In this document: positions 6,072 through 19,524 of the stretch, piece after piece
Numbering within the stretch: the stretch's first letter is position 1
Layout: each line of letters opens with the position of its first letter
Assembly (NCBI GenBank): GCA_964455935.1
Contig: CAYVZU010000052.1
Coordinates: 1-25,508 of the forward strand
Source: an uncultured Fibrobacterota bacterium
Lineage (GTDB): Bacteria; Fibrobacterota; CAYVZU01
Length of the DNA stretch: 25,508 nt
Direction of reading: 5' to 3'
Made by a program: the position numbers and the translations under genes
Notes under the pieces: generated by a model
Database searches by the model: none
What the model was told of the DNA's origin: nothing
What the model saw: the letters and a program-made list of their open reading frames with translations, nothing else

Positions 6072-6317
6072 AGAAGACTCCTGAGGTTAAGGTAAAACGG
6101 CCGCTAATTCTTGCCCTGCAAAGACACCAACATAGCAAAGGCATACATCCGTGCTATAGCCTCGCTACCTCAAACAATTTGTTTCTACAAAAGGTGGCCT
6201 CATACTTTAGCAGGTATTAAGGTGATCAATTGGGCAGATGAAGTCAACAATTTTTTTAATATCCACAGGGCCCCCAGTTCAATTTAGAAGTGCAACATCA
6301 GGAGGTATCTTGATGAT

Positions 6318-6480
6318 GGCTTTTGGTCTTCCACGCATGCACGAGAAACTGGGAAAGGCGTTGCTCCTGACACCTTTCAGTTTCCGGTTCTGATGCCGAA
6401 TCCGCAACGACAACGTGTCGGTGTGTTTTGAAGCTGGAAGGCAAGAAGGGCAAACTGTCCGGGGGACAGTGGGAAATGCC
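6318..6480. repeat. Direct repeat copy 1 (~165 bp), noncoding, with an internal 11-bp stem
   Basis: About 90% identical to 7779-7945 in the same orientation. It contains ctttcagtttc ... gaagctggaag, with the same stem as in copy 2. Confidence 0.7.
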
Positions 6481-6481
6481 A

Positions 6482-7594
6482 TCACGAGTAAATACATTCG
6501 GATGCGGCCTCGGCAAACGCTTTGAGGTTGGCCGGATCGCCGAAGAAGAAATGGTCCGAGGGGCACAGGATGTATCCCGCATGATCTTTGGTTGACTCAA
6601 AGCAATCAAAAACCAGCTGCCGGGTTTTCTCCGGTGTGCCTTTTTCGAATCCCGCGTTCTGGTCGAATCCGCCGATAAAGAAGAGTTTATCGCCAACCCG
6701 GCGCGAGGCCTCGGCCAAATCGCAGTCGCCCCCCATGCTGGTCGGGGTCATGGTTTCCAAACCATCGGTCCCGGTTTCCACAGCCATGTCGAGCAAGGCC
6801 ATGAGACCGCCGCAAAGATGGTAAACTGTTTTAATGCCGATCTCGTGAAACAGCTCCACCTGGCGCTTGTCATACGGAAGGCAAAACTCGCGAAACATAT
6901 CCGGACTGATTACCGTGCTCGATCCGGCGCCGCCCCCCAGTTCGACCACGTCCGCCGGCGTTCCCTTCCAGAGTTTTGTAACCTCAAGGGTGCGCTTGAG
7001 GATCTCCTCAAGAGCGTGATGCAAAAAATCGGGCTGATCCATGGCCATATAAATGGCTTTTTCCGTATCGACCAGAGTGCAGAAGCTCTGCCATGGACTG
7101 CCCTGTCCCGGGCTGAACGGGTGTGAGCGAATGATCCCTTTTTCTCCCAGCCGCTCCTTCACCAGCTGAACCGGGCTTAAGTCGACGGATACGGGAATTG
7201 GGCGGTACTGGTTCCAAATCCCGAAGTCGGCTTCGTTTTTAATCGGGTATTCGGTCGTCCACTCGGTAAAGGCATTGCGCGCGCCTTTCTGGTGAAGGTT
7301 GCCCTTGGGAGTCGTAATCCGTTCTTCCCAGCGCTCGTTGCCATCTTCGTCTTTGCCGAGTTCCTTGTGCTGGACCTTCCATTGGCCGGGATCGGTATTG
7401 TAGATGTATTCCGGAGATACGTAGATCGCGTAATCCATGCCGAACCGCTCATAGGCGGCCCACCAGTCGCAGCCGCCCAGGTACGTCTTCAGATAATAGT
7501 TCATCCAGCCATGGACCTGGCAGGGCAGCCGGTCGGGCCGGTCGTTGGAAAGAGCTGTCAGCATTCGCTGGCGTGAGGTCATCCGATGTGGCAT
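6482..7594 (-). CDS. Uroporphyrinogen decarboxylase (URO-D) family protein, HemE/MtaA-like
   Basis: 370 aa with a URO-D fold along its whole length (MPHRMTSRQRMLTALSNDRPDRLPC... then a C-terminal TIM-barrel region with GGFDQNAGFEKGTPE). An AGGAG RBS lies 6 nt upstream of the ATG at 7592-7594. Confidence 0.85.
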   Translation of the reverse strand: MPHRMTSRQRMLTALSNDRPDRLPCQVHGWMNYYLKTYLGGCDWWAAYERFGMDYAIYVSPEYIYNTDPGQWKVQHKELGKDEDGNERWEERITTPKGNLHQKGARNAFTEWTTEYPIKNEADFGIWNQYRPIPVSVDLSPVQLVKERLGEKGIIRSHPFSPGQGSPWQSFCTLVDTEKAIYMAMDQPDFLHHALEEILKRTLEVTKLWKGTPADVVELGGGAGSSTVISPDMFREFCLPYDKRQVELFHEIGIKTVYHLCGGLMALLDMAVETGTDGLETMTPTSMGGDCDLAEASRRVGDKLFFIGGFDQNAGFEKGTPEKTRQLVFDCFESTKDHAGYILCPSDHFFFGDPANLKAFAEAASECIYS

Positions 7595-10244: not shown

Positions 10245-13136
10245 TCATTCTCCCAGGAAAACACGGCGCATCTGATTTTGAATCGCATCGATCTGCGCAA
10301 AGCATTCCTTTAAAACGGCCTGTTCGATGCGGCTGAGCCAGCCCGGGTCTAGTAGGTTGTCCGGCTGCCCGCCGCGTTCGACAGAAGCCGATTGATGGCG
10401 GATCCGCAGCCGAAGCAGCGATTCGTGGGTGACCGAGAGATCCTGGTACTCGGACGAAAGCAGAATGCCTTTGCGTGTAAGGGCCTCAAGACGGGACAGG
10501 GTGTTGGTTTCCGAAATTTCATGCTGCATGGAATAGATCCGCGCGTATGAAACAATCGGCAAGGCCGCAGCCTTCAGATCCAGACGGGCGGCATGCTCGC
10601 CCGATCCGGCGGCCAGAACGTGTCCGAACAGGCGCAGAGGGGCCTTGAAGCCCAGCGCATTGCGCACGGCATGAGGAAAGAACGCGGGATTCACCTCCAG
10701 CAAACGGGCGATATGGGCGTGCAATTCCACTGCCAGAGTGGTTTCGCCGGCCACCGGACGGAAATCAAAAAAGATGCTGAACTCCATCAGCTCTTTTGGC
10801 TCCGCTCTTCTGATCCAGGTTTCGAAATATTCCTTCCAGGTACCAAGGGGCTTGCACCAACGGGGATTGCTGGCCAGCGACCTGCCCCGGCACTCGAGGT
10901 AACCCGCTTCGCTCAGCCCCGAGCAGACGAATCCGGCCAGGGCCTGGAAATAGGTGCCCGCGCCGGTCTCGGAATCCGTCTGGTCCGCGTTGTAGATAAT
11001 TGCGTTGTCCTGGTCCGACGTCAGCGTCTGCTCACGGCGTCCCTGGCTGCCCAGAGCGAGAAAAACAAAGGGCGCCGGCGGTTTTCCCAGCGTTTCGATT
11101 CCCAATTCAAGCAGGCGTCTGGTTGCGGCGTCGGTCACATCGGCCAGCAGGCGCGCGATGTCCGGCGCATACGCGCCGTGATCGAGAAGTGACTTCACCA
11201 GCTTTGGATTTCTTCGGCAAATGGAAATGACCTGATCCCGGCTTGGGGCGCGCGCAATTTCCTGCGCCAGGTCCTGCACCGTCACCGCCGGAAGCTGAAG
11301 CAGCCGTTCCAGGACGCTGTGCTTGCGCGCCTCGGCCAATTCGGCGTTGTCCTGAATCTCGCTTGGGCGAAGAAGGACCATCAGTCCGCCCGGCACCGCT
11401 TCGGAGATCCGCCGGAAGGTGAAGGCACATTCCGCCAGATTTCCGTCTCTTTGCCGCGCCACGCCGCGGGCCGATTGGTCGGCCGGATTGCCCGCGTCCA
11501 ATCGCCGCAGAGCTGCCGTTGCGCTTTCGTTTTCCGGGCTGGAAGGAACCACATCCTCCAGGTCGAGCAGTTCCAGCTCCTTTTGCGAGTAGCCCAGCCA
11601 GCTCAGCAGGACGGGGTTGGCATACCGGCAGCGGCGGTCGCTCACGAACAAAGCGCCCTCGCCCGCGGCTTCCACCAGCATGCGGTAGCGATCCACGGCC
11701 TCCCTCAGCAATTCCTCCGCCGTGTTCCTGTTGCGTTCCGCGCGGTAGCTGGCGCGAACCGAAACCATCAGCAGCATCGCCACCAGGGCCGCGATGGCCG
11801 CCGAGACCCCCGCCAATCTGTTTCGGAGATGATCCAACTCCGCCTTCACATCGTTCATGTAAATTCCGGTGCCAATGATCCAGTTCCAGGGCTCAAACAG
11901 CCGAAGATAGGATTCCTTCGGTTCCAGGCGGTGCGGGTCGTCTTTCCATTGCCAGACGTAGTCGACGTATCCCTCGCCATTGGCCTTGACCACCTCCACG
12001 AAAACCGTGAATATGCGAACACCGCGCGGATCGGTAAAACTCGAAAGGTCGGCACCGTTGAGATCTCTGCGATAGGGGTGCATGATCATGCGCGGCGCGA
12101 GGTCCTGAAGCCAGAAATAGTCCTTGGCCTCCGGCCCGTAGCGCATCGCCTCCACACGCACCTTCGCCTGCTCCTGAGCCTGCAGCCGCGTCAGCAATCC
12201 CTTCTGTTCTTCCCGGTTGGCCTCATCCAGAATGCTCCAGGCCGCGTTGGTCAGTTCCCGAATCATCTCGCGTTTGCGCTCCAGCAACGCCTTTTCAAAC
12301 CGCGGCAGGAAAACAAGAAAGAGGACGCCGGCAAATAGCGCCAGCGTCATCAGGGACGGAAGGACGATGTGCGCCATGAATCCGCGCCAATGAAATCCGG
12401 GGCCCGCTGTTGCAATCGGCAGGGGCGGCCGGAACCTCGCTTTGGCGGGCGCTTCGGTCCGCGCGGCGCGGCTCAGGCAGGCATCGCGGAAAGCCTTCCA
12501 TGCCGTTAGAGGCATTTGTACGCCGGGTTTTCGATCCGGCACATTGTTGGAGAAATGAACATCCGATCCGGCCGAAACAATCAGGCCAAATTGCGCGGCC
12601 AATGCGCAAGCGCGCTCTTTGTCCCGGGCGGAAGCCGTGTTGTTCAGCGCTTCGATACCGTCAAGTCCCGATTGCCGTAATTCCTTTACGATATTCGCCA
12701 GATTGTCGGGGTTCGGCACCGAAGCAAAGGGGTGGGCCAAAACCGCGATCCCCCCGGCCTTGTGGATCAGTGCAATGGCTTCAGTGGCGGGCAAAGACCG
12801 CTTGGGGATCAGAATGGGCGAATCCGCATCCCGGCGCGCGGCAAGCTCCCGAAGCGCCGCGCGCAACTCTCCCTGCTCCGTCTCGATCCCGTATCCCAGG
12901 ATGTGCAATTCCAGGCCGGCCAATTGCGTCGTCATCTCCACACCGGCGATGGAACCGATGCCCTGACGCGACAGGACTTGCCTGAAAACGGACTGGCCTT
13001 CAAGCGAATCGTGATCGGTCAGGGAGGCATATTGAACACCGGCCTCGGCCAGCTTTGCCGCAAGCCGGTCCGGCGGCAGGGCGCCATCACTGAACGATGA
13101 ATGGCAGTGGAAATCGACGACGACCGTCTCGCCCAT
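10245..13136 (-). CDS. Multidomain membrane signalling protein: N-terminal PHP phosphoesterase, TM, periplasmic single Cache domain, TM, PAS, then DUF294 nucleotidyltransferase with DUF294_C (GlnD/GlnE-like)
   Basis: 963 aa. PHP motifs VVVDFHCHSSFSDG...LTDHDSLEG...LAHPF...SAGSDVHF. A transmembrane helix HIVLPSLMTLALFAGVLFLVFL. A Cache signature KESYLRLFEPWNWIIGTGIYMNDV, followed by a second transmembrane helix. A PAS-like segment. Then the nucleotidyltransferase core FVFLALGSQGRREQTLTSDQDNAIIY and a C-terminal substrate-binding-like helical domain. Confidence 0.85.
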   Translation of the reverse strand: MGETVVVDFHCHSSFSDGALPPDRLAAKLAEAGVQYASLTDHDSLEGQSVFRQVLSRQGIGSIAGVEMTTQLAGLELHILGYGIETEQGELRAALRELAARRDADSPILIPKRSLPATEAIALIHKAGGIAVLAHPFASVPNPDNLANIVKELRQSGLDGIEALNNTASARDKERACALAAQFGLIVSAGSDVHFSNNVPDRKPGVQMPLTAWKAFRDACLSRAARTEAPAKARFRPPLPIATAGPGFHWRGFMAHIVLPSLMTLALFAGVLFLVFLPRFEKALLERKREMIRELTNAAWSILDEANREEQKGLLTRLQAQEQAKVRVEAMRYGPEAKDYFWLQDLAPRMIMHPYRRDLNGADLSSFTDPRGVRIFTVFVEVVKANGEGYVDYVWQWKDDPHRLEPKESYLRLFEPWNWIIGTGIYMNDVKAELDHLRNRLAGVSAAIAALVAMLLMVSVRASYRAERNRNTAEELLREAVDRYRMLVEAAGEGALFVSDRRCRYANPVLLSWLGYSQKELELLDLEDVVPSSPENESATAALRRLDAGNPADQSARGVARQRDGNLAECAFTFRRISEAVPGGLMVLLRPSEIQDNAELAEARKHSVLERLLQLPAVTVQDLAQEIARAPSRDQVISICRRNPKLVKSLLDHGAYAPDIARLLADVTDAATRRLLELGIETLGKPPAPFVFLALGSQGRREQTLTSDQDNAIIYNADQTDSETGAGTYFQALAGFVCSGLSEAGYLECRGRSLASNPRWCKPLGTWKEYFETWIRRAEPKELMEFSIFFDFRPVAGETTLAVELHAHIARLLEVNPAFFPHAVRNALGFKAPLRLFGHVLAAGSGEHAARLDLKAAALPIVSYARIYSMQHEISETNTLSRLEALTRKGILLSSEYQDLSVTHESLLRLRIRHQSASVERGGQPDNLLDPGWLSRIEQAVLKECFAQIDAIQNQMRRVFLGE

Positions 13137-16917: not shown

Positions 16918-18138
16918 CTACCGCGACAAGACCTTTTCGTAAACCCGCTCGATCCGTTCCGCGACCCGTTCCCAGGTGAAATGCTCCTGAAACCGGAGCC
17001 GGCCCTTTTCGCCCATGGCCCTTCGCAGTTCTTTATGCTCCGCCAGGTCCAGCAGGCATTCGGCCAAGCTCCCGACATCACCTCTGGCCACCAATCGACC
17101 CGTCTCTCCGTGAATCACAATCTCTGGAATCCCGCCACTGCGCGTGGCCACGACCGGCAGCCCGCTTGCCATCGCTTCCACAATGGGCATGCCAAAGGGC
17201 TCATTCCAGACCGAGGGAAAAACCAGGACGTGCGACGATTGATACAGCTCGGCCAGCTGGTCGTGAAGAACAGCCCCGCGGAATTCCACCGGAAGTCCCT
17301 GGCTCATTTCCATTAAATGTTTGAGGTAGCCTCCGCCAAAGAAGGGCCGGATTTTCTCAAGCTCCGGTCCGGCAGACCAAGTTGTCGCAATGTCCGCGGA
17401 AGGAACCGCTTCCGGGCCTGCAATAACCAGTCTGGCATCATTTTTCCGCGCATAAATGTCCCGAAACGCCTCGATCAGAACATGCAGTCCTTTTTCCGGG
17501 GAGACCCGGCCCGTGTAGAGAAGAGAGAAACTCTCATTTGCAGGGCTTTGGCGAATGGAAACCGGATCGGCCCCGTTGTAGATGATGCCCGCGTTTTCCG
17601 CTATTTCCGGAAATTGATCTCGAATTCCTTGAACTACGAACCCACTGCATCCCGCCACAAAATCGACCAGCGCCAACCGTTTCCGGACAAGCGCTTTTGG
17701 CAATTCGGTAAGCCATTCGCAGTGCATGTGCAAAACAATGCGTGCTGTCGGATTGAAGAAGTGTATGATCGGCACAAACTGGGTGAGATTATGAAGATGG
17801 ACAATGTCGCATCGCAATCCTCGTAACGCCAGGGCCGTCTGCAAGCCATACAATGCATAGTAAATCCGCGAGGCGTACAGCGGGCCTGGAAGAATTTTCC
17901 TTAATCGGGATCGGGCAATGGCTCGCAGGAGCTTTTCATCAAAGCGCGTGGAATGCAACCTGTATTCAACCGCGCTTCCCTTTCCAGGCAGTTCGCTCCC
18001 TTTTCTGGCACCGACGTTGACCACCTGGTGCCTTGCGCCAAGCCGGGCCGCGACACGGTCACTCCAGACCGCAATTGATCCGGTGATTGAGCCCGGCACA
18101 ATGGTATTCCAAGGCTGATTGACAATGGCAAGCCGCAT
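16918..18138 (-). CDS. Glycosyltransferase family 4 (GT-B, group 1)
   Basis: C-terminal motif VVATRSGGIPEIVIHGETGRLV and an EX7E-like region. The likely start is MRLAIVNQPW at the ATG at 18138. The ORF track extends to a TTG at 18171. Confidence 0.85.
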   Translation of the reverse strand: MRLAIVNQPWNTIVPGSITGSIAVWSDRVAARLGARHQVVNVGARKGSELPGKGSAVEYRLHSTRFDEKLLRAIARSRLRKILPGPLYASRIYYALYGLQTALALRGLRCDIVHLHNLTQFVPIIHFFNPTARIVLHMHCEWLTELPKALVRKRLALVDFVAGCSGFVVQGIRDQFPEIAENAGIIYNGADPVSIRQSPANESFSLLYTGRVSPEKGLHVLIEAFRDIYARKNDARLVIAGPEAVPSADIATTWSAGPELEKIRPFFGGGYLKHLMEMSQGLPVEFRGAVLHDQLAELYQSSHVLVFPSVWNEPFGMPIVEAMASGLPVVATRSGGIPEIVIHGETGRLVARGDVGSLAECLLDLAEHKELRRAMGEKGRLRFQEHFTWERVAERIERVYEKVLSR

Positions 18139-18243
18139 ACAGATCGGAGAGATTTGAGTGAAATGGGGCAATGGACAAGAGGCGGGTATTATTCGATTGC
18201 AAAGGCCATACCAGCAGCCTTACGGTCCGCTGAGCCTTTAACC

Positions 18244-19345
18244 TGAATACCGCGTCTATCGCGTCTAGGGACGGACCTTTAAAACTATATTTACGAATGG
18301 CTTCTTCTTTGCGAGTTCATCGCCGGCGGCGATGCTCAGGGTCGCAGGGGAGCCGCCGACACCCAGATATTCTCCAATCTTGTTTACGGGGAACCCGTAC
18401 TCCCGGCGGCAAAGGTGGGCAAACACATGCCGCAATGCTGCCAAATGCGAGCCTCGGCTGCGCCGCTGCAGTTGTTCTTTGGTGATCCCGGAGACTTTGC
18501 AGAAGTTACCGGCAAGCGAATCAAGCAAAACGCCTTCAACTCTGTACCGGGCAAGCCTGATCCGGTTGGTTTTATCCGCGGCCAGGGCGGCCTTCACAAA
18601 TTCGGGATCTCCGATCACCCAGCATCCCGGATCGAACATATCTTTCCTGCCGGCATTTGCCATTCGTATCGTCTTTATCAGGGTATCTTCGGCCATGCCC
18701 ACCCCTGATGCGATGAACTCCCAGTAATTGAAAGTCGCCGTCTTCCGGTCCCTGCCAAACCTGCGCAAAACAATCCAAGAATCCATAAAATCGCAGTTGC
18801 GGTTGCTCATAATCACCGCGTGACTGCTCCAGGGGTATGCATCCAGGACCTCAAGGCTATCGCAGATTCCGGCGCGCAAGGGGTTAAGGTGAACGTAGCG
18901 TATGATTTCCTTTACGTAATATTGATCCTGTGTTGTAATTGACTTAAACCGGTCCTGAAACAGGTATCCGCGCCGACCATGTTTTCGCGCATGATATAGG
19001 GCATAGCGGGTATTAAGTGGCCGCATCAGATCGCAAAGGGGACGCTCGGCTGTCTGGATCAGCAAATGGTAATGATTGGACATTAAGGTCCAGGCATGAC
19101 ATGCGCAGCCGCTCTTTTTCAGGTTTTCGCGGAGGAACTCAAGGAATTTTGTGCGGTCTTCTTCATCAACGAAAACATCGCGGCCTTCGATGCCCCTGGC
19201 CATTACATGATAGAAACTCCCAGGTAGAAATATGCGCGCTTTTCGAGGCATGCTCCAAGATAATTCATGTTTCGCCAAATTATAAATAAAGTTATAAAGG
19301 TCCGTCCCTAAGCGGCGGCGCTAAGCGGCGCGTAAACCATCGTCG
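18244..19345. mobile_element. Compact IS-like element: one HUH (Y1) transposase gene bounded by ~32-bp imperfect terminal inverted repeats
   Basis: The right inverted repeat attataaataaagttataaaggtccgtcccta (19279-19310) matches the reverse complement of the left inverted repeat 18266-18297, with a 15/15 core and 27/32 overall. Outside each repeat are short tandem GC-rich subrepeats (gacgcg ata gacgcg / agcggcg..agcggcg). A possible 7-bp flanking direct repeat TTTAACC occurs at 18237-18243 and 19346-19352. Confidence 0.6.
18265..19251 (-). CDS. IS200/RAYT-like HUH (Y1) transposase fused to a C-terminal DnaA_C-like helix-turn-helix domain
   Basis: SFYHVMARG at the N-terminus, the HUH motif NHYHLLI, and a catalytic-Tyr region RYVHLNPLRAG. 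The C-terminal ~90 aa (..ITKEQLQRRSRGSHLAALRHVFAHLCRREYGFPVNKIGEYLG..) resemble the DnaA C-terminal DNA-binding domain. The last 8 codons lie inside the left inverted repeat. The ATG at 19251 is preferred; an alternative TTG start is at 19278. Confidence 0.8.
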   Translation of the reverse strand: MPRKARIFLPGSFYHVMARGIEGRDVFVDEEDRTKFLEFLRENLKKSGCACHAWTLMSNHYHLLIQTAERPLCDLMRPLNTRYALYHARKHGRRGYLFQDRFKSITTQDQYYVKEIIRYVHLNPLRAGICDSLEVLDAYPWSSHAVIMSNRNCDFMDSWIVLRRFGRDRKTATFNYWEFIASGVGMAEDTLIKTIRMANAGRKDMFDPGCWVIGDPEFVKAALAADKTNRIRLARYRVEGVLLDSLAGNFCKVSGITKEQLQRRSRGSHLAALRHVFAHLCRREYGFPVNKIGEYLGVGGSPATLSIAAGDELAKKKPFVNIVLKVRP

Positions 19346-19424
19346 TTTTAACCCGGATTCACAGCCGTCTTGATAGCCTTTGGCGCTTTTTATGGGCGAA
19401 GCGAGGGGTGGTTGAATTCTACTG

Positions 19425-19468
19425 AGTTGCTCAAATAAAATAAGACAGGGGAATCTTTCGATTCCCCT
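19425..19468 (-). terminator. Intrinsic terminator ending the gld-like ABC operon
   Basis: caggggaatc tttc gattcccctg (19445-19468) is a 10-bp stem. The minus strand continues TCTTATTTTATTTGA. An 18-nt perfect palindrome gacgttgcgcgcaacgtc at 19484-19501 lies between this stem and the stop codon. Confidence 0.55.
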
Positions 19469-19524
19469 GTTTCGTTCGATGAAAGACGTTGCGCGCAACG
19501 TCTCCAAAATGATGAACGGTCGAA

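Follow-up and report, generated by a model that had tools for sequence, protein, structure and literature searches.

The window considered here is the whole 25,508-nt stretch of contig CAYVZU010000052.1 from an uncultured Fibrobacterota bacterium, and the element in question is a minus-strand gene for a Y1 HUH transposase-like protein together with the pair of inverted repeats that brackets it. RAYT-like genes with terminal inverted repeats were named TIRtrons, and their proteins TIRYT, by Di Nocera et al. (2013, BMC Genomics 14:522; PMC3733652). The locus is a further example of this named kind, not an undescribed insertion sequence (IS) family. Its features are as follows.

18265 to 19251, minus strand: TIRYT gene, tnpA-Y1 subclass 2.1.2-like, 328 amino acids plus stop codon
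18823 to 19215, minus strand: N-terminal Y1 HUH nuclease domain, about residues 13-143 (Pfam, NCBIfam, alignment, Foldseek)
19066 to 19074, minus strand: HUH motif H60-Y61-H62, invariant in a 31-sequence alignment
18895 to 18897, minus strand: catalytic-type Tyr119 in the motif RYVHLNP, invariant in the same alignment
18295 to 18543, minus strand: C-terminal DnaA-domain-IV-like helix-turn-helix, about residues 237-319 (Pfam, profile, Foldseek)
18266 to 18293, plus strand: gene-distal (3') terminal inverted repeat, TAGGGACGGACCTTTAAAACTATATTTA, overlapping the stop codon and the last 8 codons
19283 to 19310, minus strand: gene-proximal (5') terminal inverted repeat, TAGGGACGGACCTTTATAACTTTATTTA in minus-strand reading
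18250 to 18258 and 18259 to 18267, plus strand: left tandem units of 9 nt each, CCGCGTCTA and TCGCGTCTA, abutting the outside of the left tip
19309 to 19321 and 19322 to 19332, plus strand: right tandem units, TAAGCGGCGGCGC (13 nt) and TAAGCGGCGCG (11 nt), abutting the outside of the right tip

The encoded protein

The enclosing open reading frame extends from 18265 to 19278 on the minus strand. The start codon is most likely the ATG at 19251 and not the edge of the frame at 19278, because MPRKAR is the conserved N-terminus across the family. Database gene calls begin 16 codons downstream, giving a protein of 312 residues (P0001), and the protein look-up returned this shorter call and no exact record of the 328-residue form.

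In the protein, a helical linker connects the RAYT-like HUH/Tyr nuclease domain to a helix-turn-helix resembling domain IV of DnaA. An earlier note on this DNA, made from the letters of the window, had read the protein as a RAYT/IS200-like HUH/Tyr core fused to a DnaA_C-type helix-turn-helix, and this architecture is borne out by Pfam, by profile searches and by an AlphaFold model with its Foldseek matches. In the N-terminal part, residues 23-130 match Pfam Y1_Tnp with an E value of 1.4e-11, and residues 13-143 match NCBIfam REP_Tyr_transpos with 64 bits, which is sub-threshold since the cut-off is 80 bits. The HUH motif (H60) and Tyr119 are 59 residues apart. When the N-terminal domain was compared with the PDB as a lone sequence, only noise was obtained, and profile and fold searches were required. 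The AlphaFold model, with a mean predicted local distance difference test score of 86.6, has as its top PDB match the E. coli TnpAREP protein with its repetitive extragenic palindrome (REP) hairpin (4er8; template modelling (TM) score of 0.74 on the target), followed in rank by the transposases of ISDra2 and IS608.

In the C-terminal part, the Pfam match to Bac_DnaA_C covers residues 260-306 with an E value of 5e-5 and 23.7 bits, under the cut-off of 31.5 bits; many homologues have a recorded match to the same domain. A profile of 31 family members, searched against the PDB, retrieved DnaA domain IV of Aquifex (2hcb, 1l8q) over positions 237-319 with an E value of 5.4e-6. Comparison of the C-terminal part of the model with the DNA-binding domain of M. 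tuberculosis DnaA (3pvp) gave a TM score of 0.76 and a root-mean-square deviation of 2.2 A.

Inverted repeats and tandem units at the locus

The two arms of the inverted repeat are 28 nt long and complementary at 26 of the 28 positions (93%), with a score of 23 against at most 10.5 in shuffled sequences. Inverted repeats of about 32 bp had been noticed around the gene from its sequence; their presence is confirmed at 28 nt, and the accompanying observation that the left copy encodes the last 8 residues of the protein holds as well, these residues being NIVLKVRP. The conserved tip GGGACG of the 3' arm lies at 18268-18273, and the G-run at the tip of the 5' arm begins 57 nt upstream of the ATG. 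Within the 5' arm are two CTTTAT sub-repeats 8 nt apart, which appear on the plus strand as ATAAAG at 19286-19291 and 19294-19299. No copy of the repeat core beyond the two arms was found in the 25.5-kb window, and folding of the element ends into REP-like hairpins was no better than that of shuffles, with z values of -0.6 to +0.8.

The tandem run on the right, which is the gene-upstream side, has a score of 9 and a period of 13. The earlier note had described tandem GC-rich hexamers outside each repeat. Tandem repetition is indeed present at both ends, but the units are 9-13 nt long and not hexamers. An artefact of assembly is excluded, since the same units recur unchanged in three independent assemblies and each fits within a single sequencing read.

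Two-part anatomy of the repeats across the family

More than 1400 homologues of the protein were found, many of them automatically named 'REP element-mobilizing transposase RayT' or 'putative transposase'. A scan of one genome per GTDB species yielded at least 587 loci, originating from Desulfobacterota, Nitrospirota, Elusimicrobia, Fibrobacterota, Omnitrophota and other groups. At 77 testable loci and in the window, we determined the best inverted repeat between the surroundings of the start codon and those of the stop codon. About two-thirds of these loci have an inverted repeat far above shuffles, and at 54 loci, the window included, both arms open at the outer end with GGGAC. The upstream tip typically lies about 57 nt before the ATG, and the downstream tip between -3 and +28 relative to the stop codon.

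The family profile of the arm reads (A/T)(A/G)GGGAC(G), followed by about four variable bases and then by an A/T-rich stretch, in which T peaks at +9/10, +14-18 and +22/23. The tip is conserved, whereas the inner part of the arm is lineage-specific and mostly includes a pair of direct sub-repeats spaced by 8 nt. Exact sub-repeats with a length of 6 nt or above are present in 31% of the arms, compared with 3% of shuffles, and the lag between the copies is 8 nt in 36 of the 47 cases. Examples are TTAACTTA in L072, TAACTTAG in L041, TAAATAA in L043 and CTTTAT in the window, each occurring twice.

The two arms differ in their relation to a -35-like TTGAC box. Of the 54 loci, 26 have the box at most 60 nt inward of the upstream tip, and 2 at such a distance from the downstream tip; its usual position is +22 to +31. 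Given that the box adjoins the upstream arm, a protein bound to this arm would cover the promoter of its own gene. A box lying 22-31 nt inside the tip is about 35-28 nt before the ATG, which corresponds to a 5' untranslated region of near-zero length (L076, L072, L066), and the transcripts of family genes with the box may have no leader or almost none. In the window itself the TTGAC box is missing, and the GGAG is separated from the ATG by just one base.

Two further observations concern the downstream end of the gene. Many divergent members (P0002, P0004, P0007, P0019, P0020, P0042, P0073 and the protein of the window) terminate in (L/V)RP, and this ending seems to be dictated at the DNA level, where the CGTCCC of the tip is translated in frame immediately ahead of the stop codon. 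At L066 a second TIRYT paralogue (6249-7097), N-terminally truncated and with its own downstream repeat, directly follows the complete gene, indicating a tandem duplication of the unit.

Tandem repetition at the tips

The hexamers of the earlier note are the local form of a family-wide junction stutter, i.e. short tandem units reiterated at the outer tip of the repeat. A tandem run with a score of at least 7 touches 20.6% of 107 tips, as compared with 1.2% of random windows and 2.9% of 1568 intergenic windows from the same loci; the odds ratio between tips and intergenic windows is 8.6 (Fisher p 2e-11). Unit lengths span 7-17 nt, the left and right sides of a single element have different units, and the opening bases of the tip are often part of the unit. 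Loci with stutter include L086 (1120-1215), L087, L088, L038, L060, L078, L080 and the window; among the closest relatives, L086-L088, it is present at most ends, and in the window at both. The clearest case is the junction of P0002, the closest relative (64% identity, from the same groundwater project), where CGGCACTGGGGA is followed by CGGCACTGGGGACGGGA, CGGCACTGGGGACGGGA and then CGGCACTGGGGACGGACC, running into the repeat. P0003 and P0005 have tandem units at both ends, and tandem duplications of whole arms are found at L046, L067, L019 and L077. The stutter is absent from both papers describing the family (PMC3733652, PMC6006769).

Across the loci, sequence instability is concentrated at the tip of repeats that are built of two parts and hold a fixed geometry relative to the gene.

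Genomic context and mobility

The insertion point lies between a terminator at 19445-19470, which ends an ABC-transporter/DUF4340 operon, and a gene for a GT4 glycosyltransferase. The exact protein occurs on three other contigs, all in one context. The earlier note had looked to additional copies and empty sites for the definition of the ends and of a target duplication. A search through the neighbouring DUF4340 gene retrieved one relative with an occupied spot and no clean empty site. This sole relative, whose DUF4340 neighbour is 71% identical (L085 1153-3877), has a DDE_5 transposase and a ParE-like toxin/antitoxin pair at the spot. The intergenic spot is a hot spot for mobile genes and a variable region.

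In a scan for the pattern TAGGGACGGACCTTTAWAAC, a metagenome collection that does not contain the source contig, and whose scan has no bearing on copy number, gave one match, located in a TRAP-transporter region (L084) and taken as chance. Three other assemblies (L001-L003) have contigs ending at window positions 18117-18196, around the start of the glycosyltransferase gene. We considered these breaks as a sign of repetition and rejected them, as they lie 70-150 nt outside the left repeat. Other assemblies of the same population also diverge from the window upstream of 22510, as seen in L001 1-771; this divergence and the contig ends suggest strain-level variation on that side.

Four relatives could be traced over larger numbers of contigs (9-18 in the three cases of fixed context). 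The 9 contigs of P0109 share one context with identical junctions, as do the 9 of P0012, and P0116 (18 contigs) has one context in the majority and variant junctions in a minority, so that the context is fixed in three of the four. The fourth, P0020, is a 1036-bp element that is 99.4-99.9% identical in seven samples and has three flank combinations (L112-L118). Its homology breaks exactly at AGGGACGG on one side and at CCGTCCCT on the other, and L112 and L113 differ by one extra 7-nt unit at the upstream junction. The one-sided changes of its flanks suggest several copies, recombination or end-specific events. For P0116, the downstream tip is followed by other sequence in two contigs, L111 from JGI 3300031707 and L108 from SRR9617925, which differ in sample and assembler; the break lies within the G-run. 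In L111 (1-85, 1101-1218) a flank is followed by the element and by the exact reverse complement of the flank over at least 85 nt. Candidate origins of this arrangement are an inversion, a duplication by fold-back and an artefact of assembly. L108 (3965-3976) shows the same alternative junction at a contig end, and the flank Z of L111 was not found within 10 kb on either side of the main P0116 context.

Extra copies of the repeat occur near the genes more often than expected, with 8 observed within 10 kb against about 0.03 expected. They include a doublet resembling a miniature inverted-repeat transposable element (MITE), at L046 396-560 in an Elusimicrobia metagenome-assembled genome. This doublet, 1.4 kb away from the TIRYT gene, is made of two 34-nt copies in inverted orientation, and the spacer of about 85 nt has no gene. 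Others are solo copies 1-2 kb away, oriented as if bracketing a passenger gene. At two unrelated loci, from Omnitrophota (L008 2813-3964) and a deltaproteobacterium (L023 6856-8016), a putative P-loop ATPase of about 385 residues is placed like such a passenger, between the downstream repeat and an extra outward copy. Plasmid records contain only distant relatives, annotated as 'transposase'. Judged from these contexts, the behaviour of the element is not that of a multicopy IS.

The question of a target duplication

The heptamer TTTAACC is present on both outer flanks, at 18237-18243 and 19347-19353, as had been pointed out together with a possible 7-bp target duplication. The two copies are, however, 22 and 36 nt away from the repeat arms, i.e. 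at unequal distances, and a 7-mer common to two 50-nt flanks occurs in 9.4% of the family loci as compared with 10.1% of shuffles. Direct repeats abutting the tips are absent from 38 of the 54 loci, and the other 16 share 1-4 nt, which is roughly the chance level. A target duplication was rejected both as an abutting and as a displaced repeat. By these comparisons, the TTTAACC pair is a chance match, and no target duplication is seen in the family.

Other features of the window

At 10245-13136 on the minus strand the window encodes a 963-residue protein of unusual-looking architecture, in which an N-terminal PHP domain is joined by Cache sensor domains, a DUF294 nucleotidyltransferase and the C-terminal substrate-binding domain belonging to the latter. 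Rfam and tRNA scans of the window gave no matches.

Proposed explanation

The observations are, in our judgement, probably best explained by a TIRtron in which a chromosomal, apparently single-copy Y1 HUH transposase-like gene is combined with inverted repeats that are most likely recognised by its own protein. The helix-turn-helix would bind the two sub-repeats on duplex DNA and thereby confer lineage specificity. Binding at the upstream arm, which would double as an operator, would probably result in autoregulation. In the bound state, the HUH domain would be placed at the conserved tip, and the tyrosine would nick and rejoin one strand at or within the G-run. Such activity would be infrequent, the unit resembling a domesticated RAYT and not a proliferating IS. 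Its presumable footprints in the relatives are the tandems of flank plus first tip bases, the one-sided flank changes at the tips and the nearby solo or paired repeats. The tandem units could originate from staggered nicks with fill-in, from strand-displacement re-initiation at a regenerated nick site or from slippage, candidates that are indistinguishable here.

Binding to the sub-repeats would account for the finding that the inner part of the arm co-varies with lineage while the tip does not. It would also answer an objection of Quentin et al. (2018, BMC Genomics 19:475; PMC6006769), who saw no resemblance of the conserved tip motif to a DnaA box and pointed out that the repeats might not be read by the tail. 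We put forward only tentatively, and as a possibility on the doubtful side, the more specific proposal that TIRYT proteins use an undescribed repeat-dependent HUH mechanism, in which the helix-turn-helix reads two 8-bp sub-repeats, the tyrosine cuts the G-run of GGGAC, and repeated or abortive cutting and rejoining leaves the stutter and, occasionally, one-sided flank exchanges, inversions and MITE-like doublets.

Several points weigh against recognition and cutting of the repeats by the protein. The assignments of binding and cleavage are inferred, and the tail may not read the repeats at all if the view of Quentin et al. is followed. The stutter could be replication slippage or a set of extra binding sites and not a footprint of nicking. 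The alternative junctions come from short metagenomic contigs, among which L111 is a suspicious palindromic one. At the locus itself, a sigma-70 promoter scan of the upstream arm gave no call, and the repeat core was found only twice within the window.

The repeats might instead be operators only, with the helix-turn-helix autoregulating the gene, possibly by looping the two arms, and the HUH domain acting elsewhere on single-stranded DNA. The -35-like box adjoining the upstream arm in half of the relatives would fit this explanation, as would a gene that is single-copy and stable in most lineages, and Quentin et al. have suggested that the DnaA-like tail might target the replication fork instead (PMC6006769). 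It would nevertheless leave unexplained why a second repeat with the same outward conserved tip stands at the stop codon in nearly every relative, why the tandem reiteration is located exactly at the outer tip, and how the flank changes at the tips and the dispersed solo and doublet copies arose, and we regard it as unlikely. Still less probable to us is an autonomous IS of a new family, in which the inverted repeats would set a double-stranded unit flanked by a 7-bp duplication of TTTAACC. The gene is bounded by inverted repeats and sits in an intergenic spot after a terminator, other mobile genes occupy the same spot beside the 71%-identical DUF4340 neighbour, and identical elements of P0020 and P0116 have different flanks that break at the tips, all of which speak for such an IS. 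These points are opposed by the chance-level TTTAACC pair at 22 and 36 nt from the arms, by the absence of an abutting duplication across the 54 loci, by the single context of the exact protein and by the fixed contexts of P0109, P0012 and the majority of P0116 contigs. The earlier note had pointed to a distinct, poorly characterised IS family; the unlikeness to classical IS200/IS605 elements stands and the mechanism is uncharacterised, but the family was already described in 2013 and 2018.

We give the least credence to a misreading of the end structures, by which the locus would be an ordinary IS200/IS605 element or a REP-associated RAYT (REPtron), and consider this explanation highly improbable. 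The Pfam Y1_Tnp match, the order of the structural matches (TnpAREP, then ISDra2 and IS608) and the many homologues automatically named RayT would be in its favor. However, the protein of 328 residues with its helix-turn-helix tail is about twice the size of the IS200 TnpA, the match to REP_Tyr_transpos remains below its cut-off, there is no tnpB gene, the ends lack hairpins, and no REP copies are present in the window.

The locus itself adds little, as its architecture was named in 2013, classified in 2018 and is common across several phyla. The subclass, in turn, is the second-largest of TnpAY1 and has no known substrate or mechanism; hence, the comparison matters more than the locus. The survey yields a testable repeat anatomy, consisting of a conserved tip, two 8-nt sub-repeats and a promoter box at the upstream arm, together with a statistically supported footprint at the tip in the form of tandem junction units. 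It also yields natural junction variants, by which the active end is located at the GGGAC tip. With these three results, a first study of the biochemistry has predictions and exactly defined oligonucleotide substrates to start from. If repeat-dependent HUH cutting proves true, the stutter would allow the sites and the frequency of action of these enzymes in nature to be read from sequence alone.

Comparison with known systems

With the IS200/IS605 elements IS608 and ISDra2 the protein shares the Y1 HUH catalytic fold and chemistry. These elements are distinguished by subterminal hairpins, the lack of terminal inverted repeats, a transposase of about 130-155 residues, a frequent tnpB gene and multiple copies, features that are not seen here. 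A classical IS with terminal inverted repeats differs in its abutting direct repeat of fixed length, which is likewise not seen.

The RAYT/TnpAREP proteins are closer. E. coli YafM (4er8) is the best structural match of the N-terminal domain (TM 0.74), and a REPtron resembles the element in the window in that the gene is single-copy, apparently so in the window, and stably placed in the chromosome, with inverted copies of the presumed substrate on either side. In both, the substrate can be reiterated in tandem with flanking pieces; REP clusters reiterate REPs with pieces of the flanking DNA (PMC3733652). The element in the window differs from a REPtron in having neither a palindromic REP hairpin nor a GTAG tag, and in possessing the extra helix-turn-helix domain. 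Moreover, REP hairpins are abundant in a genome; copies of the substrate are not known to be so here, and the repeat core occurs only twice in 25.5 kb.

The closest likeness is to the TIRtrons and to the TnpAY1 subclass into which most of their proteins were later sorted; we found no literature after 2018 on this group. As in TIRtrons, a RAYT-like HUH/Tyr protein, longer than RAYTs and with an invariant HUH motif and tyrosine, is encoded by a gene that has terminal inverted repeats and not REP hairpins on its flanks, the spacing between repeat and coding sequence being roughly constant. In some cases an arm overlaps the 5' or 3' end of the gene; the arms carry a G-rich conserved motif and are occasionally dispersed in the form of small families. 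The motif GGGGWSAS is found in many or the majority of TIRtron repeats, but not in all (PMC3733652). The tip of the window, TAGGGACGGACC, has no exact match to it and shares GGG(G)AC. Among the relatives the tip is mostly (A/G)GGGACG, with 88% having G where GGGGWSAS has A, and 11% (GGGACA) fit. The TIRtron paper (PMC3733652) does not mention the 8-nt sub-repeats, the -35 box at the upstream arm or the tandem junction units.

Quentin et al. (PMC6006769) placed 20 of the 26 TIRtron proteins in TnpAY1 subclass 2.1, and described group 2.1.2 by a tail similar to Bac_DnaA_C, HTH_23 or HTH_28 and by the absence of REPs nearby, with a median HuH-Tyr spacing of 58-67 residues in most TnpAY1 subclasses. 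Judged on these published features, the protein in the window resembles subclass 2.1.2 in its complete PF01797 core, the 59 residues between HuH and Tyr, the Bac_DnaA_C-similar extension, the lack of REPs nearby and the patchy distribution over multiple phyla. The difference concerns the role of the tail, as Quentin et al. left open whether it reads the repeats, and the present comparison suggests that it may do so through the sub-repeats and not through the tip.

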